Source: a virus
Lineage: Duplodnaviria > Caudoviricetes
IMG/VR virus record: IMGVR_UViG_3300036762_000065
Location: 64,001 to 128,000 of that record
Direction: 5' to 3' (one strand)
DNA length: 64,000 bases
Both the position numbers and the translations under genes were made by a program. Each line of letters starts with the position of its first letter. Within the stretch, counting starts at the first letter, position 1. Under the pieces are notes generated by a model. It did not search any database. It was not told where the DNA came from and saw only the letters and a list, made by a program, of their open reading frames with translations. This document shows positions 20,531-34,057 of the stretch, one piece after another.

Positions 20531-20962
20531 TTGTGGTATATTACGCTGTATAGCAATGATGTGCAATGGAATATAATTACTGACTTATGTAAATATAAAA
20601 TAGGCGTTGCTTCTGGATATTCTTACGGTAATGAATTCGACAATACCGACTGCTTAAAATCCACTGTCGAGGCAGTTACTTTGGAAGAGCAGAATTTAAA
20701 GAAGTTGTTGGCCAAAACTATAGACATTACGTTTATGGACGACACTGCCGCAACATACTTGATTAGAAAAAATCTAAACTCAAGCAGTAAGTTAATTAAA
20801 TTAGGAACTAGACAACCTTTAACATCGTTGAGTGTACATCTCGTTTGCTCTAAGAATAACACCTCATGTTATAATGTTATCCGTAAGTTTAATGAAGGAC
20901 TGCGTATACTTAACGCTGACGGCACTATAGATTCCATAGTACGCAAATCGTTAGTATATTGA
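20531..20962 (+). pseudogene. C-terminal fragment of a family 3 (amino-acid) periplasmic solute-binding protein
   Basis: IGV..GYSYG.EFD, EQNLKKLL...ID, HL..SK and FN.GL..L..DGT...I match SBP_bac_3; the signal peptide, the N-terminal lobe and a clear RBS are missing. Confidence 0.6.
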
Positions 20963-21009
20963 AAAATACTAATTTTATTGTAACACAAACCAACGCCAGG
21001 AAATTACAA

Positions 21010-21534
21010 ATGAAAATATCTTTAGATTTAAACGGCTATGAGTCTGATTCTGCCGAAGCTTTAACTAGAGACGAAAAATCTCTACAAACTGCAATTACAA
21101 GGCTCGCCCGCTACAAAGAAAAAATAGCTGCTACTGTTACTAGAATACGTACACTAAAGTCAAAAGTAAAAGCTGCCGGACGTAGCGGCAGAGTAGCTGC
21201 TAAACCAAAAGCCGGTAAAGCTCCTGCTGCTAAACCAAAAGCCGGTAAAGCTCCTGCTGCTAAACCTCTCAGCAAACGAGGAGCAGCTCAAAGAGAAGCC
21301 GTTAAAGCTCCTGCTAAAGCTCCTGCTAAACCTGCTGCTGATGCTAAGTCACCTGCTCAGGTACACAGAGAACTTGTCCAGAAGTATGCTGCGTTGAATA
21401 AACGTGTGGAAGCAGCATACAAACGAAAGGATTACATTAAAGCTAAAAAGTTAAATGCTCAACTTGTTGAGTTGAATAAAAAGGTTAAGGCTGCGATGAA
21501 GGCAGATATGGAATCTCGTGTAAGCAAAAAATAA
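21010..21534 (+). CDS. Lys/Ala-rich basic (histone-like) protein, possibly a head DNA-binding protein
   Basis: ATG 21010 after AGGA; AAKPKAGKAP repeats; leader MKISLDLNGYESDS. Confidence 0.7.
   Translation: MKISLDLNGYESDSAEALTRDEKSLQTAITRLARYKEKIAATVTRIRTLKSKVKAAGRSGRVAAKPKAGKAPAAKPKAGKAPAAKPLSKRGAAQREAVKAPAKAPAKPAADAKSPAQVHRELVQKYAALNKRVEAAYKRKDYIKAKKLNAQLVELNKKVKAAMKADMESRVSKK
21196..21266 (+). repeat. 30-bp tandem repeat (about 2.3 copies) encoding AAKPKAGKAP
   Basis: gctgctaaaccaaaagccggtaaagctcct twice, then gctgctaaacc. Confidence 0.9.
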
Positions 21535-21561: not shown

Positions 21562-22311
21562 ATGAGCCACATGCAATCTATAAGTTTTTCTTTAGGTCAA
21601 AAACCAACAGAGCTTCGCGGAATCAGCGGCAAATCTAACTCTATTAATCTAAACAAAGAAGTTACAGGAGCCTCTGAAGGTCGAACTATAGATGCTAATA
21701 TGTGGCTTCCTCGTGCAGCCGAAGTATACCAGATAAGTCCTAAGCTTTCTGATTATATACTTGTTCCTGTACCTAGTCTTATAAGTGATATAAGTAATAC
21801 AAACGGCGACTCTGTTTCTAAAGCAGAGTTGCTTCGCTTTCATCCTGATCAAGGCTGTCTTGCATATCAAACGTGGAAAGGGAAGCCTACCCATGTAGAA
21901 CACGCCAATAAGGATATAACTAAAGCTAAAGGAATTATCCTTGACGTTTTCTTACGTCCTATGGCTAGATATCACGGAAACCATGTTAAAGTTATAAAGC
22001 TCCTTGCATTTGATAGAACTAAAGATGAGACTCTTTGCAATAACATACTTGAGCGTAAGGTAAATACATACAGTTTAGGTATGTGGTTCAAGAGTTACAC
22101 CTGCACAATATGTAACAATCAAGTAGGTCAAAACTTCGGGCGTATGTGTGTACATACAAAACCTAGAAAACCTATCTATCAGCAACCGGATGGTAAATTG
22201 GCTTACAGACAGTGTGAGAATATCATAGGTTTCGAGACCTCTGTAGTATTGGACCCTGCATACGTAGTAGCCTTGTCCGATCATTTGATTGATGTTAGTA
22301 AATTTGCTTGA
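21562..22311 (+). CDS. candidate prohead (head maturation) protease with a Cys/His metal-binding insert
   Basis: N.NGD, GKPTHVEH (candidate catalytic His), KG.ILD, YSLG (candidate catalytic Ser), CTIC...C.H and ETS.V.DPA, resembling HK97/herpes-fold phage proteases; lies upstream of the scaffold and capsid genes. Confidence 0.6.
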   Translation: MSHMQSISFSLGQKPTELRGISGKSNSINLNKEVTGASEGRTIDANMWLPRAAEVYQISPKLSDYILVPVPSLISDISNTNGDSVSKAELLRFHPDQGCLAYQTWKGKPTHVEHANKDITKAKGIILDVFLRPMARYHGNHVKVIKLLAFDRTKDETLCNNILERKVNTYSLGMWFKSYTCTICNNQVGQNFGRMCVHTKPRKPIYQQPDGKLAYRQCENIIGFETSVVLDPAYVVALSDHLIDVSKFA

Positions 22312-22318
22312 TACTCCT

Positions 22319-22756
22319 ATGATACAGATTCAGATATCTTTGTCTGCTAATGAATTGAAGGTTGAATCCGTTGTTGAGAATATGTACAAGGAGCTCCGCA
22401 GTACAAGAACAGGTAAAAGCTCTTGTCACACGCGAACTATAGCCTACATAAAAGAAAAACCTTGTATAGATTGTCAAATAGTTATCACATACGCACCTGA
22501 TGTTAGGAATGAAGGTAACGAATTTGCTGTACATTCATTTGTAAAAGAAAATGCAACAGATACTATTGAGTTCGACAGTCAGCACGGAACTATTAGAAAT
22601 AACATTTATTACAATACAGAAGTAATAAAATCAAAAGGTAAGGAGTATAAAATACCCAGACAGCATTTAATGAAGCACTCCTATAACCTAGATATTTCTG
22701 CGTTTAAGGCAGCTAAAAGTGCTGCCGAAGCTGTATCATTATTAAGAAAGACTTAA
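22319..22756 (+). CDS. hypothetical protein with MIQIQISLS leader
   Basis: ATG 22319, in frame with the ORF-track call. Confidence 0.6.
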   Translation: MIQIQISLSANELKVESVVENMYKELRSTRTGKSSCHTRTIAYIKEKPCIDCQIVITYAPDVRNEGNEFAVHSFVKENATDTIEFDSQHGTIRNNIYYNTEVIKSKGKEYKIPRQHLMKHSYNLDISAFKAAKSAAEAVSLLRKT

Positions 22757-23089: not shown

Positions 23090-25483
23090 ATGTCTAAGAC
23101 CCGAACAAACGACACCAAAACAGTACTTAGAGGTATCGTAGTTGCCGGGAACTCACGACAAGATGTTGAGGAGAACTATCGTTCAGTAGTAACTGGAGTG
23201 TCTGTAAAAGCACTACAGCCTGAAGATAATTCTTTCACTATTTTAAGCAACGCCGATGCCGACATTAGTTTATTTAATCCACTTACAGGTATGTTGGATT
23301 TAGTAACCGCAAGTGACGATTTAATTGGTCGTATGGAATTCCTAGCTTCTGATAGTGAACAAAAAGTTACTGCCTTCTACTCGCTATGTAGCGACAGTGA
23401 AGGTAACGGCTGCAACTCTCATCTTATCGCTGATGACCCTGAGCTACTGAAACATTGCCCAGTATGTGCATCAACATTAAAAATGTTGGATGAAGATGAT
23501 ATCAATGAACTACTTAGTAGTTCAAGTGACGATGAAGACGATGATTGTCCTGATTGCTCCGAAGATAGTATTATTTCGGTTGCCAATTCGTATGAGGAAG
23601 CCCAAGAAGCCTACTACGAACTTGTATCAGGTACGGCAGAACCGTTTGGAATTCGTTGCGAATACGCCACAATCCTGTCAAATGTAGACTCTTCTGAGTT
23701 TTCACACAGTCCATTTACATCAAAAGCTAGTGCAGATGTTGATTTGGATGATTTTGACACAGAAGCTATTGCTAGTGCTGGAGCTGGAGAACAAACTGCC
23801 AACTACTATGTATGTGCAAACACAGAAGGTTGTGGTAAACATATTATTTCCAGTTCAGATAATCCTGTATTCTGTCCTTCCTGTTCTTCCGGTCTCATTG
23901 AGCCTGAAGATGATCCTGAGGCGATTGCTTCTGATAAGGAAACTGAGTTGGGTAAGGAGGATGCTATTAATACTCTGTTAGGCGAGAAAGGCAACATAGT
24001 TGCAGTTGCCGCTACTGCAAAAGAAGCAAAAGCTCAATTTATCAGTCTATCAAGATTAGAAAACGATGATGTTCATACATATGATTGCGAAGGTACTGTA
24101 GTCGCATCTAATATTGATAACTCGGAGTTTTCCTTCAGTCCTTTTGACGGTGAATCCGTTTCAGAGGTTGATGTTTCTGATGACTTTGAAATTGAAATCA
24201 TTGCATCCGGTTCCAAGCAAAATATCGAAGCGCATCATTACGTATGTTCCGCAGATGATGAATGCGGTATGCATATAGTTGCTTCTGTAGAAGTAGAAAG
24301 CTGCCCTTCATGTTCTTCCGGCCTTATTGAGCCTGAATCAACTTCTTCCGACGATGAAGAGGACGATTACGATGAAGAGGATGAAGAGGAAGACTTTGAA
24401 GACGATGACGAAGATGATGACGATGACGACTTCGACTCTGAGTCTGCTGCCGAAGAAGAGGAATATATAAACTCTTTATCTTCCGAAGACCTCGATGATT
24501 ATTTAGACTCTTTATCTTCGGATGACGAGGATGATTCTGACGATGACGAGGATGATTCTGACGATGACGAGGATGATTCTGACGATGACGAGGATGATGA
24601 TGATGGTGATGATGACTCGGACAATACCTTATCAGTCTCTTCTGTAAAATTCAAGTCTTCTAAGAGAAAGCCGGAAGACTCTACCGTTGCTGTTAGCTTG
24701 TTGTCTATCGCATCTTCCTATGAAGAATACGATGCAGCTAAACTTGAAGTATCTTGTGCAGGTACAATCCAAAACGAAACAACTTGGATTGCATTTTATG
24801 ACGGAATGCCTGTAGCAAAAGCCACAGCGTCTAATGCACTTAAGCATTCTGATATCTTCAATAAGCCTCTGTTCGGTAACGCCTTCTTAGCTACCGCTAA
24901 AGAAAATTCCGTGCAAGAAGCTTTAAGTGCTTTCGGCTTTAAAGAGTTTTGTCCTGAGTTTAACGTGGAATCACACGTTGAAAACGAGATAGCTACTCAG
25001 GTAGAAGCCAAAGTTAAAGATGTTGAAGATAAGCATCAAACAGAATCTAATGATTACAATGAACGTATGCAATCGGCGCTTGCTACTGCTGCTCAAGGTA
25101 TCAATAGAAACTTCTTCAAAGGTATCGTTAACCCTAACCCTATTAAGACAGCACTTGCTTCAAGTTTGGCAGCCGCTGGTTTACGGGAGCCGGAAGCTAT
25201 TATAGCTAAAGCCTTTGCAGATCATTCGGACGCATATCATAAGAATTTGATTAATAAAGCTTCGGAAATTGTAGCTAAGTCTATTGAAATTCAAAATGAA
25301 CTTGCGGAAGCCGTTGCCGGTAGTAACCCAAGCACAAATACTGATACTGTTGTCCCTATAGGCACCCCTGCTAAATTACCTACGCAGAAACCTATGGAAT
25401 CAACATCGTCTGTATCTTCTGGGGAAAAACCTGCATTCTCTCGTATGGATGCAATCCTGGCTGGCTTAGGTCAGCGGAAATAA
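23090..25483 (+). CDS. acidic prohead core/scaffolding-like protein with three Cys-rich repeats
   Basis: AGGAG RBS; three modules ending C...GC..H...CP.C; Asp/Glu tract; helical C-terminus; sits just upstream of the capsid genes. Confidence 0.65.
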   Translation: MSKTRTNDTKTVLRGIVVAGNSRQDVEENYRSVVTGVSVKALQPEDNSFTILSNADADISLFNPLTGMLDLVTASDDLIGRMEFLASDSEQKVTAFYSLCSDSEGNGCNSHLIADDPELLKHCPVCASTLKMLDEDDINELLSSSSDDEDDDCPDCSEDSIISVANSYEEAQEAYYELVSGTAEPFGIRCEYATILSNVDSSEFSHSPFTSKASADVDLDDFDTEAIASAGAGEQTANYYVCANTEGCGKHIISSSDNPVFCPSCSSGLIEPEDDPEAIASDKETELGKEDAINTLLGEKGNIVAVAATAKEAKAQFISLSRLENDDVHTYDCEGTVVASNIDNSEFSFSPFDGESVSEVDVSDDFEIEIIASGSKQNIEAHHYVCSADDECGMHIVASVEVESCPSCSSGLIEPESTSSDDEEDDYDEEDEEEDFEDDDEDDDDDDFDSESAAEEEEYINSLSSEDLDDYLDSLSSDDEDDSDDDEDDSDDDEDDSDDDEDDDDGDDDSDNTLSVSSVKFKSSKRKPEDSTVAVSLLSIASSYEEYDAAKLEVSCAGTIQNETTWIAFYDGMPVAKATASNALKHSDIFNKPLFGNAFLATAKENSVQEALSAFGFKEFCPEFNVESHVENEIATQVEAKVKDVEDKHQTESNDYNERMQSALATAAQGINRNFFKGIVNPNPIKTALASSLAAAGLREPEAIIAKAFADHSDAYHKNLINKASEIVAKSIEIQNELAEAVAGSNPSTNTDTVVPIGTPAKLPTQKPMESTSSVSSGEKPAFSRMDAILAGLGQRK
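24521..24597 (+). repeat. 21-bp tandem repeat (3+ copies) encoding DDEDDSD
   Basis: gatgacgaggatgattctgac three times, plus a partial copy. Confidence 0.9.
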
Positions 25484-26268: not shown

Positions 26269-27360
26269 ATGAAATCCAATACACAAGGCGCCAGAATGGT
26301 TCTTGCTAACGGCGACCCAATTACCGAACTGCGTTTGGGCAAATCGCACTCTAGCGCACTCGACCAAAAAACTGGCGAGTTTAACGCACACAATACAAAA
26401 GAACTTTTGCAACAGATCAGTGGATTGATGCAAGCGGTTGCTAACGGTCAGGTTGTTGAAGACACTATGCAGTCTGTTAGTTCTTCTGATGAGCGCCGTG
26501 AACTTCTTGCGAGTGCCATGAACGATGAAACAGGACAACAGTGGGCAGCACTTGGTGCAGGTCTTGCTAGACAGATCAACGAGCAAACTGACCGTGAAGG
26601 TTTCTTGCGCCGTATCTGTAGCGGTAATACGTTACGTCAAGGCGAAATTGCACGTATTCCAATGCCACAGCATGATACGTTTGCTGTAGTAGCAACCACA
26701 GCATCTAACATGGGCTACCAGACTATCCGTCAGCGTCTTTTTACTCCTGATGAGTTTGAGATTCAAGCTAACGTTCGCGTTGAAGCTTTGGACATCGAAC
26801 AAGTTAACGGTGATCTTTTGGAAAACGCTTACAACGACGGTCTGCAAGCTATTATGGTTGCAGAAGATCGTCTATGGAGACAAGCTGCGGATATGACTGT
26901 CGGTATCACTAACGATCTGGAATTGATCGCAGGCGAACTTACAACTAAGTCATTAGGTAACTTACGTCAAGCTGTAAGCCGTTGGAATTTACCTGCAACT
27001 ACTGCACTGATTTCAAATGATTTCTGGTCAGACATTATTGGAAGTAACGACTTCGCTACATTCCTTGATCCTATTACAAAATATGATCTTGCTATGAACG
27101 GTCAGTTGGGTACTCTAGTAGGTCTGAGTTTGATCACGGATGCTTTCCGTCAGCCAAACCAGAAAGTACTTGCTCCTGGTGAAATTTACATTCTTGCAAG
27201 TCCTGAAAATCATGCATCGTATACTACCCGTGGCGGTATCCGGTCTACTCCTACTACTGGAGCTAACCAAGGTAACAGCACACGCGGTTGGTTTATGTCA
27301 GAACCGTTTAGCTTTGTACTCGCTAACAATCGTTCTGTAGCAAAAGGAAAACGTATCTAA
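26269..27360 (+). CDS. major capsid protein
   Basis: 363 aa; GGAG RBS; HK97-fold-like features (helix AYNDGLQAIMVAEDRLW, GQLGTLVGL.LITD, GEIYIL); followed by a strong terminator; follows the scaffold gene. Confidence 0.85.
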   Translation: MKSNTQGARMVLANGDPITELRLGKSHSSALDQKTGEFNAHNTKELLQQISGLMQAVANGQVVEDTMQSVSSSDERRELLASAMNDETGQQWAALGAGLARQINEQTDREGFLRRICSGNTLRQGEIARIPMPQHDTFAVVATTASNMGYQTIRQRLFTPDEFEIQANVRVEALDIEQVNGDLLENAYNDGLQAIMVAEDRLWRQAADMTVGITNDLELIAGELTTKSLGNLRQAVSRWNLPATTALISNDFWSDIIGSNDFATFLDPITKYDLAMNGQLGTLVGLSLITDAFRQPNQKVLAPGEIYILASPENHASYTTRGGIRSTPTTGANQGNSTRGWFMSEPFSFVLANNRSVAKGKRI

Positions 27361-27447: not shown

Positions 27448-27741
27448 ATGAAAATACAAATATCATTATGCGGCAAGGTAGTCAATAATAAGAAACATAG
27501 GTATAATCTTCCTGTCTCTAAAAAACACAGCCCGGAAATAAAAGAACTTCTTGCACAACTAAAGGACGTTCGCGCATCTATAAAAGCTATAGGTAGACAC
27601 ATAGCAAAAGGTAATGAATTTATACATATACGCATAGGCTATAAAAAAGACACACCTATAAAAACATTGCAAAAACAAGAACAAAAGATCATTTCTAAAC
27701 TTCACGCTTTAGGTTTGGATGTAAACCTTTTCAAGGGATAA
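27448..27741 (+). CDS. small basic protein with MKIQISLC leader
   Basis: AGGA RBS; Lys-rich, 97 aa. Confidence 0.65.
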   Translation: MKIQISLCGKVVNNKKHRYNLPVSKKHSPEIKELLAQLKDVRASIKAIGRHIAKGNEFIHIRIGYKKDTPIKTLQKQEQKIISKLHALGLDVNLFKG

Positions 27742-28376: not shown

Positions 28377-29045
28377 ATGGACAATGAATTAAATTTCAAT
28401 CTATTGTCAGGAACCCAGTACGCTAACACGCCACTCTATGCTAGTTTTCTTGGCCTAAGACAGACGTTTGCAAAGCATTTGGGTATTAGTTCAAATATAC
28501 CTATAATTACACACAACAACCAAAAAGCTATATTACGCAAAGAGCGTAATTCAAGCTATCCTTATGCGTACATTCTATTGAGTGGTCTTAAAGTTGTTAG
28601 AGACCAAGAGCCTAATAAAAGTATTGCACGTAGAGGTAGCCATATATCTACACAATCCGCTACTAATGCAACAGTAGCCAAAGGGTATTTGTTTAAAGCG
28701 GAAATAAACTTTGAACTACACTGGCTGCACAATCAGATAACCGATGTAATTATGTTTATAGAAAAAATGTCTATACTAGGTGCAATAGACGCATTTACAT
28801 TCAATGTCACTGTGCCTAATGTGCCTGAGTGGGTAGCAACTGTAGAACTTCCTGACGGAGAGATAGCAATACCTCGTGCAGAACTCGATGACCCCGCTGA
28901 ACCGGGTGCAATGGACATTGCAATTCAGATGGTTCTAAAGACTAGAATAGGTATTGTTAAAGATGTTCCAAAAGTAAACAATCAAGGTCTAGTTACACAA
29001 ACTGTCGGTGTAGGTAACTCCTCTACAGGGGAAATTGAATCGTGA
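28377..29045 (+). CDS. virion structural protein (neck/tail-completion candidate)
   Basis: YPYAYI motif and alternating beta pattern; located between head and tail genes. Confidence 0.5.
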   Translation: MDNELNFNLLSGTQYANTPLYASFLGLRQTFAKHLGISSNIPIITHNNQKAILRKERNSSYPYAYILLSGLKVVRDQEPNKSIARRGSHISTQSATNATVAKGYLFKAEINFELHWLHNQITDVIMFIEKMSILGAIDAFTFNVTVPNVPEWVATVELPDGEIAIPRAELDDPAEPGAMDIAIQMVLKTRIGIVKDVPKVNNQGLVTQTVGVGNSSTGEIES

Positions 29046-29302
29046 AAATCCAGATAAGTTTATCCAATCAAGCAGCTAAGAACAATATAAAAACACAACG
29101 TATGCAAATAAAAAGTCTGAGGGACAGACTGTCTCGGGTACGTGATGTTATGAAGCGGTTGCGAGAAAGGAAAAAAAGATTTGAACAACAGTATGAACAA
29201 CAGTCAGAAGCAATAAACGTTAAAATACAAAACATAGAACAAGCCATAGAACGTAATCAAAGTAGAATAGCTAAAAACAAACAAGAGGTGGATACCAAAT
29301 GA
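29042..29302 (+). CDS. small basic coiled-coil protein with MKIQISLS leader
   Basis: GTG start overlapping the upstream stop; heptad pattern. Confidence 0.65.
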   Translation: MKIQISLSNQAAKNNIKTQRMQIKSLRDRLSRVRDVMKRLRERKKRFEQQYEQQSEAINVKIQNIEQAIERNQSRIAKNKQEVDTK

Positions 29303-30771
29303 AATTTAGACCTCTTTCAAAAACAGTAGTTACTGAAATACGAAGTTTTGTTGTAGACTCTGTTTCTAAAATAGGTCTGTATAGACAAACTGTATCTGCT
29401 CCTATAGATTTAGCAAAACCGCTAGACGACAAAGATTTCAATATAAGTGCAACGGAGTTTCTTGATATTCAAGATGCCAGTGTACTACTAGCAATAAGTT
29501 GTCCGGAACCTATCCGTGCTATATTTACCGGCTCAGGTCCTGTTGTAATAACACCTCCTGTAGTTACCCCTATACAATACCACACAGCTACACTCACTAC
29601 AGAAAGTTTTGTTGAAGCAGGTAACCCTATTTCTGTAACAATATCTGATGTGGACCTAGAGCAAGTTGTCTCTTCTATCGGTGCTGTTGTTTATAACACA
29701 GATTCAGGCGAAACTGAGCATGTGGAGTGCTTTAGGCAAATAGACGGCACTTACACAGGCACACTAGACACAGTTAACAGTAGTGTTGTCGGCACAAACT
29801 TCGATAATTCTATGAGTTGTGTTTTAGGCCAAACGTTACATGTTATATATAGCGACCCGAAGAGTAGTGCAGGCGTAAGAGAGAACGTAACTAATATTGT
29901 TACTGTTCTAAGCCCTACAGAAACCGCAGTAATAGAAACAAGGGATTTCGTATCTATATCAAAACCTGTGCCTATCACTATACACGATAAAGACGCAACA
30001 TCACCGACTATACCTATATCTGTTCGCAATCTTATTACAGGTGAGCAAGAGATTTTGAACGCTTCGCTTATGGAAGCAGGAAAGTATACCGTAAGTTGTG
30101 CTACAAAAGTGTATAACGGAATATCGTTCGACAGTGTTGACGGTGCTCTTGGTGTTCTAATAGGTCATCAGATACAAATAGATTATACTGACACTAGAGA
30201 CATAAACAACTCTACTTCGGTTGTAAGTAAAATAGTTGATATTGTTGGAACTGTTACAGAGGTAGGTTCAATTGATGTGGCAACCACAGTAACCATTGAT
30301 ACTGCTCTTATGTTGACTATAAACGACTACGATCTTGTAGGACAACAGTTGAGCGTTACTGTAAGTAATATAGCCAGCGGCGAGTACGAGATAGTTACAC
30401 TTAATGAGACTGTATTCGGTAGTGGTGTGTTTAAAGGTAACTTGCCTGTAACAACACAAACTTCAGGAGCTAACTCAGACGGTGCTTTACTGGCAGCGGT
30501 AGGCAATAGACTACGTGTTGTGTACGTGGATGTCGGAGGTTCACTAACGACTGTGGAGAAGTTTGTAGACGTTGTTGATGTGGTTATTCCTGATGATCCT
30601 ACCCCGACTCCTGATCCTACCCCGACTCCTGAGCCGGAAACCGTAGAAGCTACAGGCACTATTGAGTTTTTAATAAACGGCTCGTTCTTCTTGAACGGCA
30701 CGTTCAACGGTACTATCCGCCTAGTAGGTTTAAATCAAGAACCAACACGTTGTAAGGTGATCTTGTCATAG
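29299..30771 (+). CDS. virion structural protein with three beta-sandwich repeats and a PT/PD linker
   Basis: Three copies of I.D.D...V.N..SGE.E...G.Y/F.G.L...G..L...Y.D; DPTPTPDPTPTPEP linker. Confidence 0.65.
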   Translation: MKFRPLSKTVVTEIRSFVVDSVSKIGLYRQTVSAPIDLAKPLDDKDFNISATEFLDIQDASVLLAISCPEPIRAIFTGSGPVVITPPVVTPIQYHTATLTTESFVEAGNPISVTISDVDLEQVVSSIGAVVYNTDSGETEHVECFRQIDGTYTGTLDTVNSSVVGTNFDNSMSCVLGQTLHVIYSDPKSSAGVRENVTNIVTVLSPTETAVIETRDFVSISKPVPITIHDKDATSPTIPISVRNLITGEQEILNASLMEAGKYTVSCATKVYNGISFDSVDGALGVLIGHQIQIDYTDTRDINNSTSVVSKIVDIVGTVTEVGSIDVATTVTIDTALMLTINDYDLVGQQLSVTVSNIASGEYEIVTLNETVFGSGVFKGNLPVTTQTSGANSDGALLAAVGNRLRVVYVDVGGSLTTVEKFVDVVDVVIPDDPTPTPDPTPTPEPETVEATGTIEFLINGSFFLNGTFNGTIRLVGLNQEPTRCKVILS

Positions 30772-30780
30772 GATAATGTT

Positions 30781-32340
30781 ATGATTAAAATATGGATTTC
30801 TCTGTCAAAAAACATCTACAACCAAGATGAGATAGGCCAACAAATAACTGACTTACAAGCAAGGACTACCAACCAACGTGTTAAAACATGGTTGAAGAGC
30901 AATCTTCGCAAGTATCTTTTAAATGAGTACGAACACACAAAACCTGTCCGTCGTGGAAAAGCAAACGATCCTGAATGGGTAAATAGTGCTATCCAAAAGA
31001 AAGACCTGTTTAAGATTGACTTTAAGTCGCGTCAATGGTCTGCCTTCCGTATGGACCTAGAGCACGCCATTTCTTATCTTGAAACAGTACGTGACCCATC
31101 ACGAGTATCAGTACCTCTTGCTATCAAAGGAGGCGTTGACTTACTCGAACAGGAAAATAAAAAAGCCTCTTCCGATGAAGACCTAGAAGGAATAGAAGTA
31201 CTCCATAAGTTTCCTGATGGTTATACCTTTGTTAATGTTGTTTCCAAACAAGCACTACAGCGAGAAGGAAAGTTGATGCAACATTGTGTAGGCCAAGAAC
31301 AACAAGCATACATAAGAAATGTAGCCAAAGGAACATTACAAATATGGAGTTTAAGAGACAAGAGTAATAATCCGCACTGTACTATAGAATACATACCTAA
31401 GACAAAGAAAATAAATCAGATTAAAGGGAAGCAGAATAACGGCGTAGTTAGCAAGTACGTTCCTTACGTTAAAAAAGTCTTGGAAATAGCTAAGAAAAAG
31501 AAGATGGTAACTGAAATAGAAGACCTTATTAATATAGGTATGGTTGAAGTTGAAGGCAATTGGTATGATATACATAACCTACCTCCTGGTTTAAAAGTAG
31601 AAGGTGATTTAGATTTAGAAGACTTACAAATTAAAGTATTACCGGAAGACTTGGAAGTAGGTGGTAGTTTAAATTTAGCAGGTACACAAATTACATCCTT
31701 ACCTGAAGACTTAAAAGTAGAAGGTGATTTAGATTTATCAGATTCAAAAATTACAGTCTTACCGGAAGACTTGGAAGTAGGTGGTAGTTTAGTCTTAAGA
31801 AATACACAAATTACATCCTTACCTAAAGGTTTAAAAGTAGGTGGTAATTTAGTCTTAAGAAATACACAAATTACATCCTTACCTGAAGGTTTAAATGTAG
31901 GTGGTAATTTAGATTTATCAGATTCAAAAATTACAGTCTTACCTAAAGGCTTAAATGTAGGTGGTAATTTAGATTTATCAGATTCAAGTATTACATCCTT
32001 ATCTGAAGGTTTAAAAGTAGGTGGTACCTTAGATTTAATAGGTACAAAAATTACATCCTTGCCTGAAGACTTAAATGTAGGAGGTAGTTTAGTCTTAAGC
32101 GATACAAAAATTACAGTCTTACCTAAAGGTTTAAATGTAGGTGGTAATTTATGGCTAAGAAATACACAAATTACATCCTTACCTGAAGACTTAAAAGTAG
32201 GTAGTAGCTTATCCTTAGAGGATACAGATATTACAGTCTTACCTAAAGGTTTAAAAGTAGGTGGTAATTTAGTCTTAAGAAATACACAAATTACATCCTT
32301 GCCTGAAGACTTAAAAGTAGATGGTAGAATAATTTCCTAA
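30781..32340 (+). CDS. PcfJ-like domain fused to a 20-aa leucine-rich repeat array, with MIKIWISLS leader
   Basis: L.REG.LMQHCVG, IWSLRD..N.PH.TIE and INQIKG.QN motifs; about 12.5 repeats of LP.(D/G)L.V.G.L.L....IT. Confidence 0.8.
   Translation: MIKIWISLSKNIYNQDEIGQQITDLQARTTNQRVKTWLKSNLRKYLLNEYEHTKPVRRGKANDPEWVNSAIQKKDLFKIDFKSRQWSAFRMDLEHAISYLETVRDPSRVSVPLAIKGGVDLLEQENKKASSDEDLEGIEVLHKFPDGYTFVNVVSKQALQREGKLMQHCVGQEQQAYIRNVAKGTLQIWSLRDKSNNPHCTIEYIPKTKKINQIKGKQNNGVVSKYVPYVKKVLEIAKKKKMVTEIEDLINIGMVEVEGNWYDIHNLPPGLKVEGDLDLEDLQIKVLPEDLEVGGSLNLAGTQITSLPEDLKVEGDLDLSDSKITVLPEDLEVGGSLVLRNTQITSLPKGLKVGGNLVLRNTQITSLPEGLNVGGNLDLSDSKITVLPKGLNVGGNLDLSDSSITSLSEGLKVGGTLDLIGTKITSLPEDLNVGGSLVLSDTKITVLPKGLNVGGNLWLRNTQITSLPEDLKVGSSLSLEDTDITVLPKGLKVGGNLVLRNTQITSLPEDLKVDGRIIS
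31575..32335 (+). repeat. 60-bp tandem repeat array (about 12.5 units) encoding LRRs
   Basis: tt(a/g)(a/g)a(a/t)gtag recurs every 60 nt from 31591 to 32311. Confidence 0.95.
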
Positions 32341-32464: not shown

Positions 32465-34057
32465 ATGCCGTTAAATAACGGAAATTCCAGCTCTGCTGGT
32501 GTGTACACAGGAGAACGTGACAACTCAGCCCGCGCTTCCGCGATTGCAACCTCTATAGGTGGTATCGTCGGTCCAAGCAATCGCGGACCTGTGGGTGTCC
32601 CTACACTAACAGTAGACAACGAAGACTTTAGAAACAAGTTCGGAGCACCTGATCCTACACTAACTTTCATGCACTTATGTGCAGAGGCCTTCTTACTAGA
32701 GAGTAGTAGACTAATGGTAACAAGAGTTGCAGTTAATGCAAAGCTTGGAGGCATCAAGGTAACTACTGTAAACAATTTCTCACAAACCAGTGCTGTGCAA
32801 GAAGGACTTGACAGTCCGGAAGATATTTTGTTCGATACTATGGATATTATGTATTTTTATGCAGAGAATCCGGGTAATTGGAACAATAATCTTCGCGTAG
32901 TTCTTTATCCGGATACGAACGATTTAACCGGTGATCAGTTTATTCTGAATATCTATGAAGGCACTAGCCAAGTTCCTGTCGAAACATATAAAGGCACAGT
33001 GTTCGATAAGCTTGACGGATACGGCAACCAATTGAGTATTGAAAATCAGTTGGCTGAAAACTCAGGTCGAGTTCGTGTTCTTATTAATGAAGGACACCCT
33101 TCTCTTGTAGCTAACCCTAAAGTAAATTTGATCAACGCGGTTACAAGCGGGAGCTTTACACTAGGCTCTAACGGAGATACTGTTACCAACAGTGATATCA
33201 TAGAAGCTTGGGATCTTTACGAAGACCCTGAAGAAGTTACTGTGAACATTCTAATTAATGCCGGATACACTGACCCTAGTGTACAGTTGAAGATGGCAGA
33301 AATCTGCGAACAACGAGATGATTGTTTTGCTGTGTTGGATATGCCTAGTGACCAACAGGAATCACAAGCTGCTATCAATTACAGACGCAACACCCTTAAC
33401 TTAAACAGTAGTTATGCCGCAATCTATTCGCCTGATCTTAAGGTTAGAGACACTGCAAATTCTAGGGATATATACATTCCTCCTTCAGGGCACGTTGCTG
33501 CTGCTTATGCTCGTACAGATAATGTTGCCGCATCTTGGTTTGCACCTGCAGGTCTTAACAGAGGCCAACTTGACGTACTTGGCGTTAAGCATATTTATAA
33601 ACAAGGACATAGAGATGCGTTTGATGATAATCAAATAAATCCTGTTCGATTTATGAGTGGCCACGGCATAGTTATTTGGGGACAAGAGACATTACAAGCA
33701 CACAAAAGTGCCATGTCGAATATCAACGTGCGCCGACTTCTTATGTTGTTGAAGAATAGTATACGAAACGGAGTTGAGATTGGTGTTTACGAACCTCATG
33801 ATGAATTCTTAAGAGTCCAATTGCGTACAATAGCAGAGAACTTTTTGAATCCTATTAAACGTGGTCGAGGGTTATATTGGTTTGAAGTTATCTGTAGCGA
33901 TAAGAATAACACTCCGGAAACAATTGCAGCAGGCGATGTTATGCTCGATGTGTATCTGGACCCTGTACTTCCAGCTAAACGAATTCACTTGAATGCTATT
34001 GTACCTAAAACTGGCCAAATCAAATTCGCCCAAGAATTAATTAACTCAGAAGGTTAA
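32465..34057 (+). CDS. tail sheath protein
   Basis: SAGVY..E.D, GPVG.P, A.NPG.W.N, SSYAAIY.P, PPSGHVAA..AR.D, WFAPAGLNRG, INPV, WGQ.TL, INVRRL. Confidence 0.95.
   Translation: MPLNNGNSSSAGVYTGERDNSARASAIATSIGGIVGPSNRGPVGVPTLTVDNEDFRNKFGAPDPTLTFMHLCAEAFLLESSRLMVTRVAVNAKLGGIKVTTVNNFSQTSAVQEGLDSPEDILFDTMDIMYFYAENPGNWNNNLRVVLYPDTNDLTGDQFILNIYEGTSQVPVETYKGTVFDKLDGYGNQLSIENQLAENSGRVRVLINEGHPSLVANPKVNLINAVTSGSFTLGSNGDTVTNSDIIEAWDLYEDPEEVTVNILINAGYTDPSVQLKMAEICEQRDDCFAVLDMPSDQQESQAAINYRRNTLNLNSSYAAIYSPDLKVRDTANSRDIYIPPSGHVAAAYARTDNVAASWFAPAGLNRGQLDVLGVKHIYKQGHRDAFDDNQINPVRFMSGHGIVIWGQETLQAHKSAMSNINVRRLLMLLKNSIRNGVEIGVYEPHDEFLRVQLRTIAENFLNPIKRGRGLYWFEVICSDKNNTPETIAAGDVMLDVYLDPVLPAKRIHLNAIVPKTGQIKFAQELINSEG

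Follow-up and report, generated by a model that had tools for sequence, protein, structure and literature searches.

A leader-tagged PcfJ protein with a mosaic leucine-rich repeat array: a candidate virion-delivered effector of a PaBG/Lu11-like jumbo phage

What a phage does with a protein that joins a short N-terminal leader, a PcfJ domain and an array of leucine-rich repeats (LRRs), and how such an array changes, are the questions raised by one gene in the DNA described here. The window is a 64,000-nucleotide stretch, bases 64001-128000 of the complete 241,706-bp phage genome IMGVR_UViG_3300036762_000065 (IMG/VR), which has direct terminal repeats at its ends. Its source is an uncultured jumbo myophage related to PaBG and Lu11; the tail sheath is 55% identical to that of PaBG (Pseudomonas), 51% to that of NCTB and 44% to that of Lu11 (Pseudomonas), the closest cultured phages. 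The gene, here called PcfJ-LRR, is single-copy in the genome and intact, with its start at the first ATG, three codons past an in-frame stop. From N- to C-terminus its product (predicted mass 57 kDa) consists of the leader, a helical N-terminal domain, a PcfJ core with a predicted GNAT-like fold and the LRR array (Table 1). We lean, by no great distance, towards reading it as leader-tagged cargo that would enter the prohead, lose its leader by cleavage and reach the host together with the DNA, the LRR array then binding a host protein and the PcfJ module acting on whatever is bound. The original prediction had gone on to suggest an anti-defence or host-takeover role, which is pure conjecture.

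The leader, MIKIWISLS, is a genuine genome-wide N-terminal tag. The pattern I-x-I-[ST]-[LIV]-[SAC] occurs within the first 10 residues of 10 open reading frames (ORFs; read from the first start, at least 60 amino acids long), against 0.06 expected from the six-frame background. We relied on pattern counts against this background because an automated BLOSUM test of leader sharing is too strict for leaders as degenerate as these. The ten ORFs have no mutual similarity past the leader and are mostly small, basic and scattered over the genome, with four of them in the head–tail module of the window (starts at 22319, 27448, 29042 and 30781). They spell the peptide with different synonymous codons, so that conservation lies at the level of the peptide. 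A head protease gene is found 9 kb upstream of PcfJ-LRR; it was recognized via PHROGs, while a search of the genome with the Pfam model Peptidase_S77 gave no match, as did its control.

Relatives of the protein carry peptides of their own. In phage homologues clade-specific peptides stand before a conserved N-domain motif, which here opens the sequence from residue 10 onward and has the family-wide form (R/K)N(I/V)xN; leaderless bacterial homologues begin exactly at the xN(L/I)xN that follows the phage leader. On a 191-kb contig (L023) the PcfJ protein starts MKLFVSLS, and the peptide MK-h-x-V-S-L-S is found on it and on four neighbours. On a T4-like contig (L013) ten ORFs, two PcfJ-LRR paralogues among them, begin with MK(F/L)xx(Y/F)LxE, where 0.011 would be expected. 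A further peptide, MWY(K/R), heads eight ORFs in L066 and three in L062, again with PcfJ proteins included. Judged from these sequences, PcfJ proteins co-vary with the leader of their own phage across three leader systems. One leaderless example is a 705-residue protein of Acetobacter sp. CAG:977, whose gene has ordinary chromosomal surroundings, with an ankyrin-repeat gene and a C39-ABC/HlyD exporter as neighbours.

Several of these loci are of interest in themselves. In L013 (6801-18264, a contig shared with L016) the ten ORFs with peptides resembling the T4 capsid-targeting sequence (CTS) lie within 12 kb and comprise five small tandem genes besides the two PcfJ-LRR paralogues. The peptide of L066 (4885-15410) and L062 (7598-11230), more fully MWY(K/R)(I/L/F)A, is a third type, unlike both the T4 CTS and the ISLS peptide; the eight ORFs of L066 lie within 20 kb of one IMG/VR phage contig. 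PcfJ ORFs of 818-887 amino acids in L031, L033, L034, L037, L052 and L065 start in a T4 CTS-like manner (MSNFYSKWKQYLQE or MKFYKKWKGFLNE), and the AKVLRNINI that follows the peptide corresponds to the RN-I-x-I/N motif with which the mature N-domain opens here. In the Acetobacter sp. CAG:977 locus (L096:10001-17801) the ankyrin-repeat gene follows PcfJ-LRR after 22 nt, and the genes for the C39-peptidase ABC exporter and its HlyD partner come some 2 kb later, a setting that may serve secreted effectors. The protein is strongly conserved: its cluster has 70 members, and those listed are all 705 amino acids long. Two genes of the window itself show leader-like sequences. An Ala/Lys/Pro-rich, histone-like basic protein with repeated AAKPKAGKAP (20959-21534), which may be a packaged DNA-binding protein, has an internal Met near 21010 that gives MKISLDLNG, a leader-like variant. 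The head maturation protease begins MSHMQSISFSLG, with a leader-like I-S-F-S-L that could be an autoprocessing site.

The established model for N-terminal peptides shared in this way is the CTS of phage T4 (PMC9026906, PMC5694885). There, too, one short peptide is found on unrelated, often small basic proteins (IPI, IPII, IPIII and Alt), the set of cargo proteins differs between relatives as it does here, and Alt is a precedent for a packaged host-modifying enzyme. The prohead protease gp21 removes the CTS in T4; in the present phage a head protease is encoded nearby. The leader of the PcfJ-LRR paralogues in T4-like contigs, MKFxNYLLLE, is very like the T4 CTS. The leader of the present phage, M-x-K-I-Q-I-S-L-S, differs in ending in Ser and not in L/I-x-E, and the phage itself resembles PaBG and Lu11; its cargo is a PcfJ-LRR fusion of 57 kDa, whose loading and clipping we infer. 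By analogy with T4, the comparative evidence suggests that the leader-tagged protein is probably loaded into the capsid. The leader might instead serve translation, stability or localization of a late protein that stays unpackaged in the infected cell, acting for example in superinfection exclusion or host shut-off. We consider this improbable. It would suit a peptide that is unlike characterized CTS and cleavage motifs, and the leaderless cellular homologue, which implies an independent cytoplasmic or secreted life, while packaging is itself deduced from comparison. However, three unrelated leader systems, one of them closely T4 CTS-like, tag mixed proteins in phages with head proteases; the peptide is kept at the amino-acid and not the codon level; and the leader is predicted to be disordered and to lie outside the fold.

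The position of the gene bears on a second alternative. In both PaBG and Lu11 the sheath gene starts 51-53 nt after the orthologue of the gene at 29299-30771, which in turn is abutted or overlapped by the orthologue of 28377-29045 (E 3e-33), with nothing in between; PcfJ-LRR is not detectable in PaBG or Lu11. Going by this gene order, PcfJ-LRR and the 86-residue leader-tagged ORF at 29042 are insertions in a conserved head–tail block. PcfJ-LRR could be a virion-surface or tail adhesin whose LRR array binds a host envelope structure and whose leader guides particle assembly rather than capsid loading, in keeping with a gene flanked by a structural gene and the tail sheath gene, with a second locus (L012) where the PcfJ gene lies between those for baseplate wedge and tail proteins, with a closest solved LRR relative that binds the periplasmic flagellar rod (see below), and with weak structural matches in BFVD that include a 'structural protein' of PA5oct. 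The absence from the PaBG/Lu11 position argues against a core structural role in the tail, though, and the leader is common to scattered small basic proteins, not to tail proteins. The paralogues in L013 are found among small tagged genes near a gp32-like gene, away from tail genes, and a conserved enzyme-like domain would be unexpected in a fibre. We therefore give the adhesin little credence.

Residues 138-225 match the Pfam family PcfJ (PF14284; 51.1 bits against a cut-off of 25, E 1.7e-13), the family of PcfJ from the Enterococcus faecalis plasmid pCF10, and so do 43 of 44 aligned homologues. The Pfam description includes neither a GNAT-like fold nor an LRR fusion nor a leader. Within the core, E162, G171, Y177, S190, R192 and T201 are invariant and H168, C169, D193, P198, H199, E203, Q213, G216 and Y226 nearly so; about 15 polar core residues are invariant or nearly invariant over the 44 homologues, at 24-54% identity. 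The family is common in phages: at least 499 stretches were confirmed in IMG/VR, and BFVD has many entries. A tblastn search of plasmids with the PcfJ core gave only four weak matches, Pfam recognized no co-domain in the large IMG/VR PcfJ proteins (900-1450 amino acids), and our literature search found no functional study of the family. In bacteria of the candidate phyla radiation PcfJ has been described upstream of the variable region of a diversity-generating retroelement (PMC5758913).

No solved structure is homologous in sequence to the N-terminal half of the protein, and the ESM Atlas holds no match to it at 0.9 or above. An AlphaFold2 (AF2) model of residues 1-270 alone is of high predicted quality (predicted local distance difference test, pLDDT, 92.2). 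Foldseek gave weak matches only for this half (E 0.02-0.2), nearly all to GNAT acetyltransferases. VIA-align, run against 48,161 representative chains, placed GNAT-fold proteins in all of the top 50 positions, with matches over residues 139-265 and Z values near the tool's background for unmatched models; the best match was yeast HAT1 (1bob; Z 8.6, root-mean-square deviation (rmsd) 3.2 Å over 112 residues). The GNAT core has the order β1-α1-α2-β2-β3-β4-α3-β5-α4-β6, and its motif A, Q/R-x-x-G-x-G/A in the β4–α3 loop, binds the pyrophosphate of coenzyme A. In the model the order of strands and helices agrees with GNAT through α3-β5, giving the β-α-α-β-β-β-α-β topology common to the superfamily. 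Q213-x-x-G216 (at least 90% conserved) falls at the junction of strand 4 and helix 3, the site of motif A, with K, Q or N at the final G/A position. A reading of the conserved E/D/E/K residues as a PD-(D/E)xK nuclease was rejected, as no nuclease fold is found among the top structural matches. From the predicted fold we suggest that the PcfJ module is enzyme-like and GNAT-derived, with acyl transfer as the leading guess. The phage acetyltransferase Rac belongs to the GNAT superfamily; host RNA polymerase is modified by phage GNATs, and some injected polyvalent proteins contain a GNAT domain (PMC7824862).

The C-terminal half is, according to its predicted structure, a true LRR solenoid. The AF2 model of the whole protein, built with the 44-sequence alignment, has a pLDDT of 92.8 and a predicted template modelling score (pTM) of 0.79, with only residues 1-5 below 50, and shows a regular short strand in every unit, at L7-x8. 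Foldseek with this half returned Leptospira LRR proteins (E 1.5e-5), followed by SHOC2, YopM and IpaH. The Pfam model LRR_4 reaches 25.3 bits, below its cut-off of 27; this LRR subtype is poorly captured by Pfam, so that membership rests on structure and on the matches to FlrP and SlrP. The closest solved relative is FlrP of Vibrio (PDB 8z5u chain 0; 38% identity over 163 residues, E 6e-30, rmsd 1.6 Å), which has the same unit, LxVxGxLxLxxTxIxxLPxG. FlrP is a Sec-exported stand-alone LRR protein of 199 amino acids with no PcfJ domain, phage context or comparable leader, and serves as a periplasmic spacer on the flagellar rod (bioRxiv 10.64898/2025.12.04.692373). The AF2 model, Foldseek and the similarity to FlrP bear out the LRR reading of the repeats from which the original prediction set out.

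A second group of relatives consists of type III secretion effectors. IpaH, SspH and SlrP join LRRs to a NEL E3 ligase, and XopAC/AvrAC joins them to a Fic domain. With phmmer the array matches SlrP (E 2e-8) and SspH1 (E 1e-5), and the IpaH LRRs are similar too; the NCBIfam matches cover the LRR part only (SlrP 57.6 bits against a cut-off of 1113, SspH2 27 bits against 1243), and that to XopAC likewise remains at the LRR level. Rhabdochlamydia has proteins in which this very LRR subtype is joined to a NEL E3 ligase. These effectors share with PcfJ-LRR the 20-residue bacterial LRR class with its LP motif and, by analogy, a logic in which the LRRs pick a target that the joined enzyme would modify. 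In contrast to them, PcfJ-LRR has no Fic domain and no Pfam match to the NEL domain (PF14496), and the order is reversed, its enzyme-like domain being N-terminal; delivery would use the phage capsid, and scores so far under the family cut-offs mean that it is not a member of these families.

Tandem Repeats Finder (TRF) reports a 60-bp period over 31591-32326, with 12.3 copies and 77% matches. Cut in frame, the array consists of 12 complete units of 20 amino acids and a 9-residue stub, LKVDGRIIS, where the original prediction had counted about 12.5 units. The residues it had listed for unit positions 8-11 are exact (DLED, NLAG, DLSD, VLRN, VLRN, DLSD, DLSD, DLIG, VLSD, WLRN, SLED and VLRN), and every one of the interchangeable DNA sub-blocks it had quoted is found in the array. 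Framework positions occupied by L, V, I and P do not vary, and entropy is highest at unit positions 6, 8, 10, 11 and 13. Of these, positions 6, 8 and 10 (with 11) are the alternating outward-pointing positions of the xLxLxx strand, which usually form the concave face of an LRR. From the repeat register, the most variable residues are thus predicted to sit on the concave face, as had been proposed. Framework codons have a dS of 0.19 and concave-face codons a dN of 0.69, with a dN/dS of 1.85 for the remaining variable codons. These values indicate units that are young or homogenized, with differences retained at particular residues, mainly those of the concave face. Leu is encoded by TTA at 45 of the 50 Leu codons of the array (90%), compared with 31% genome-wide and 24% in the N-terminal half of the gene (binomial p 5e-18). 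This dominance, also remarked on before, stems from recent common ancestry or homogenization of the units and not from codon choice.

Units of the array have exchanged blocks, and the mosaic is real. When each unit is split into four blocks, the block haplotypes combine non-concordantly: VLRNT with QITS is followed by LPKG, LPEG or LPED, and KITV by LPED or LPKG. The closest unit is often a non-adjacent one (pairs 5-12, 10-12, 3-6 and 1-3). Among the informative sites 146 of 300 pairs are incompatible, and by the pairwise homoplasy index (PHI) neighbouring sites agree better than they do when site order is permuted (5000 permutations; p<0.001 with windows of 3 and of 5 sites). Some blocks are 8 bases apart out of 15, yet each of them recurs unchanged in three units, which marks them as copies and not as convergent mutations. 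The mosaic proposed originally therefore stands for the shuffled blocks, but not every apparent swap is a recombinant: in unit 9 the S and D of VLSD are encoded by AGC and GAT, each a single change away from the AGA and AAT found in VLRN, where DLSD has TCA and GAT, so that VLSD arose by convergent point mutation and not by block swap. Mis-assembly is unlikely, since exact repeats within the array reach 63 bp at most; k-mers of 71 or more do not recur.

Exchange of blocks need not imply a machinery dedicated to it. An array under programmed hypervariation, in the manner of a diversity-generating retroelement, of silent cassettes or of the lamprey variable lymphocyte receptors, would generate a repertoire within the population. 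The mosaic block structure, the significant homoplasy test and the varying repeat numbers of relatives are what such a system could leave behind. However, a search of the complete 241.7-kb genome with RVT_1 found no reverse transcriptase (the control was positive in 3 of 14 genomes), and blastn and tblastn searches of the genome with the units and the whole array gave only chance matches outside the gene, that is, no donor cassettes. Full-length members are equal in length within each of seven clusters of homologues at 90% identity (705 amino acids in 15 members, 702 in 8, 709 in 4, 474 in 3, 474 in 4, 448 in 2 and 376 in 3), and their differences are scattered point substitutions, not reshuffled arrays. 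In the bacterial clusters the array has about 1.5-2 times the density of such substitutions seen outside it; in the phage clusters it has none or has them at lower density. The exact 519-residue protein is found on three contigs, with no variant in its cluster. Given the lack of a reverse transcriptase and of donor cassettes, and arrays that are kept in near-identical relatives, we regard programmed hypervariation as very improbable.

Repeat number does differ over longer distances. In the nearest clade the N-terminal halves are about 90% identical and the arrays differ by exactly five repeats (474 and 376 amino acids), and one cluster member of 335 amino acids has a still shorter array and a divergent C-terminus. 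DNA-homogeneous arrays with periods of 60, 63 or 120 bp end PcfJ genes in many independent IMG/VR lineages. Ordinary unequal crossing-over, together with gene conversion among the units, is how the array evolves. The claim of diversification by recombination is borne out for block exchange and repeat number, the latter across the longer distances, and fails for active or programmed diversification, lengths being constant inside the 90% clusters. Two observations concern arrays and gene copies elsewhere. On a 96-kb viral contig (L043:11412-19818) about 8 kb of 63-bp tandem arrays with up to 33 copies, a very large stretch of LRR-type repeats, follow a PcfJ gene. In the nearest clade, phages (contigs of 50.5 and 48.3 kb, with P0002 and P0126) have a second PcfJ copy beside the full-length PcfJ-LRR gene; these second copies (P0162, P0157 and P0122, 190 amino acids) are truncated in the PcfJ core and end ...SLRDSGNGHVES.

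Taken together, the reading of PcfJ-LRR as delivered cargo would run as follows. The 9-residue leader, found on at least ten otherwise unrelated late proteins, would take the protein into the prohead in the manner of the T4 CTS. The head maturation protease would then clip the leader, and the mature protein would leave the capsid with the DNA at infection. In the host the concave face of the 12-unit array would select a target, most plausibly a host protein, and the PcfJ module would act on it as an enzyme, with acyl transfer as one possibility. Over evolutionary time the array would be altered as its units cross over unequally and convert one another, and the differences kept would lie mainly on the concave face.

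A number of points weigh against this reading. The leader ends in Ser, not in Glu as at T4- and phiKZ-type sites, and its cleavage site is placed, near residue 10, solely from where homology and predicted fold begin. The conserved leaderless homologue in the chromosome of a gut bacterium shows that the module also works outside virions, and the tail-gene surroundings, here and in L012, also fit a tail-associated role. The resemblance to GNATs is of middling strength (Z 6-8.6, 3-11% identity); helix α4 is missing from the model between strands 5 (254-257) and 6 (260-263); motif A is not conserved at its final G/A; the conserved His-Cys pair of the PcfJ core is not standard among GNATs; and there is no sequence-profile match to the superfamily, no acetyltransferase Pfam model matching any of the 44 homologues at E<=1. 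Without such a match catalysis may be absent or of another kind.

These last points also bear on whether PcfJ-LRR might be a pure binder, packaged or not, in which a non-catalytic PcfJ module acts as scaffold or adaptor and the LRR array sequesters or bridges a host factor. With no enzyme family matched at the sequence level, an incomplete GNAT-like fold at middling Z, and in FlrP a solved relative of the array that is purely structural, a binder is possible; we nevertheless hold it to be doubtful, because the conservation of the polar core residues described above is typical of an active or ligand site and the PcfJ module stays constant while C-terminal modules swap. An enzyme-like cargo protein therefore continues to be the reading we prefer.

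Each of the ingredients is already known: cargo targeted to the capsid, effectors that join LRRs to an enzyme, and tandem repeats that recombine. Four things appear to be undescribed, namely a PcfJ domain with LRRs fused to it, a GNAT-like fold for this domain, leaders of the ISLS class in a phage related to PaBG and Lu11, and the co-variation of PcfJ proteins with three leader systems; our literature search found no paper that combines LRRs with a capsid-targeting sequence. To our knowledge, the protein cargo injected by phages is mostly uncharacterized outside T4, P1, N4 and the phiKZ group. The ISLS class, a non-T4 leader, probably fills the role of the CTS in PaBG/Lu11-like jumbo phages. 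A very common phage domain becomes a testable candidate for an injected host-modifying enzyme, which suggests a first functional handle on PF14284, while the shuffling of the array is in itself mechanistically ordinary. One may speculate further that PcfJ proteins in general, with LRR or other C-terminal modules, are widespread undescribed virion-delivered effectors: GNAT-derived acyltransferases, aimed at a host protein by a rapidly evolving LRR and loaded into capsids by the leader system that each phage happens to use. We think this generalization rather unlikely. If true, it would provide a phage counterpart of the LRR-enzyme type III effectors, and a second type of enzymatic cargo beside T4 Alt.

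Table 1. Features of the PcfJ-LRR gene and of its surroundings (window coordinates)
Feature	Position	Strand	Evidence
Whole PcfJ-LRR gene, 519 amino acids (P0001)	30781..32340	+	ORF, Pfam PcfJ, AF2 (pLDDT 92.8, pTM 0.79)
Leader MIKIWISLS, residues 1-9, probable capsid-targeting propeptide	30781..30807	+	Leader sharing, residues 1-5 with pLDDT <50, leaderless bacterial homologues
N-terminal subdomain, residues 10-137, mostly helical	30808..31191	+	Predicted secondary structure, alignment; fold searches barely cover residues 10-137
PcfJ-like core, residues 138-265, predicted GNAT-like α/β fold	31192..31575	+	PF14284, conservation, VIA-align, Foldseek
Twelve 60-bp/20-residue LRR units, consensus LKVGGNLxLxxTxITSLPEx	31591..32310	+	TRF, unit dissection, LRR fold, FlrP match
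Partial last unit LKVDGRIIS (C-cap) and stop	32311..32340	+	In-frame cutting of array
PaBG_00077 orthologue, conserved structural-block gene, 490 amino acids	29299..30771	+	BLASTP E 2e-24 over full length, synteny
Tail sheath gene, downstream edge of insertion	32465..34057	+	Pfam and PHROG; PaBG sheath 55% identical
86-residue basic ORF, leader MKIQISLS, absent at PaBG/Lu11 position	29042..29302	+	ORF list, leader, synteny
97-residue basic ORF, leader MKIQISLC	27448..27741	+	Leader pattern
Major head protein	26269-27357		
145-residue ORF, leader MIQIQISLS, directly after protease gene	22319..22756	+	Leader pattern
Head maturation protease, candidate for leader removal	21562..22311	+	phrog_18299, E 1e-98

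Searches for close relatives of the locus gave no match by megablast against GenBank phages or by exact 28-mers in metagenome contigs, and an IMG/VR search with the sheath protein found no close relative. PADLOC gave no match. In the intergenic region downstream of the gene the repeat GTAGTCTA is not enriched (10 copies against 7.4 expected), and the RNA fold of that region does not reach significance (z -1.75). A perfect 18-bp tandem repeat (30594-30632), close to the C-terminal end of the 490-residue structural-block protein, encodes a Pro/Thr/Asp linker (PTPTPDPTPTPEPE) that is shorter in the PaBG orthologue. Between the protease and capsid genes, positions 23090-25483 encode a strongly acidic protein of 797 amino acids (phrog_20988, labelled 'ATPase'). 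It contains two internal repeats of about 190 residues, each with CPxC...CPSCSSGLIEPE motifs, as well as a long Asp/Glu tract and an internal AVSLLSIAS, and is scaffold-like by position.

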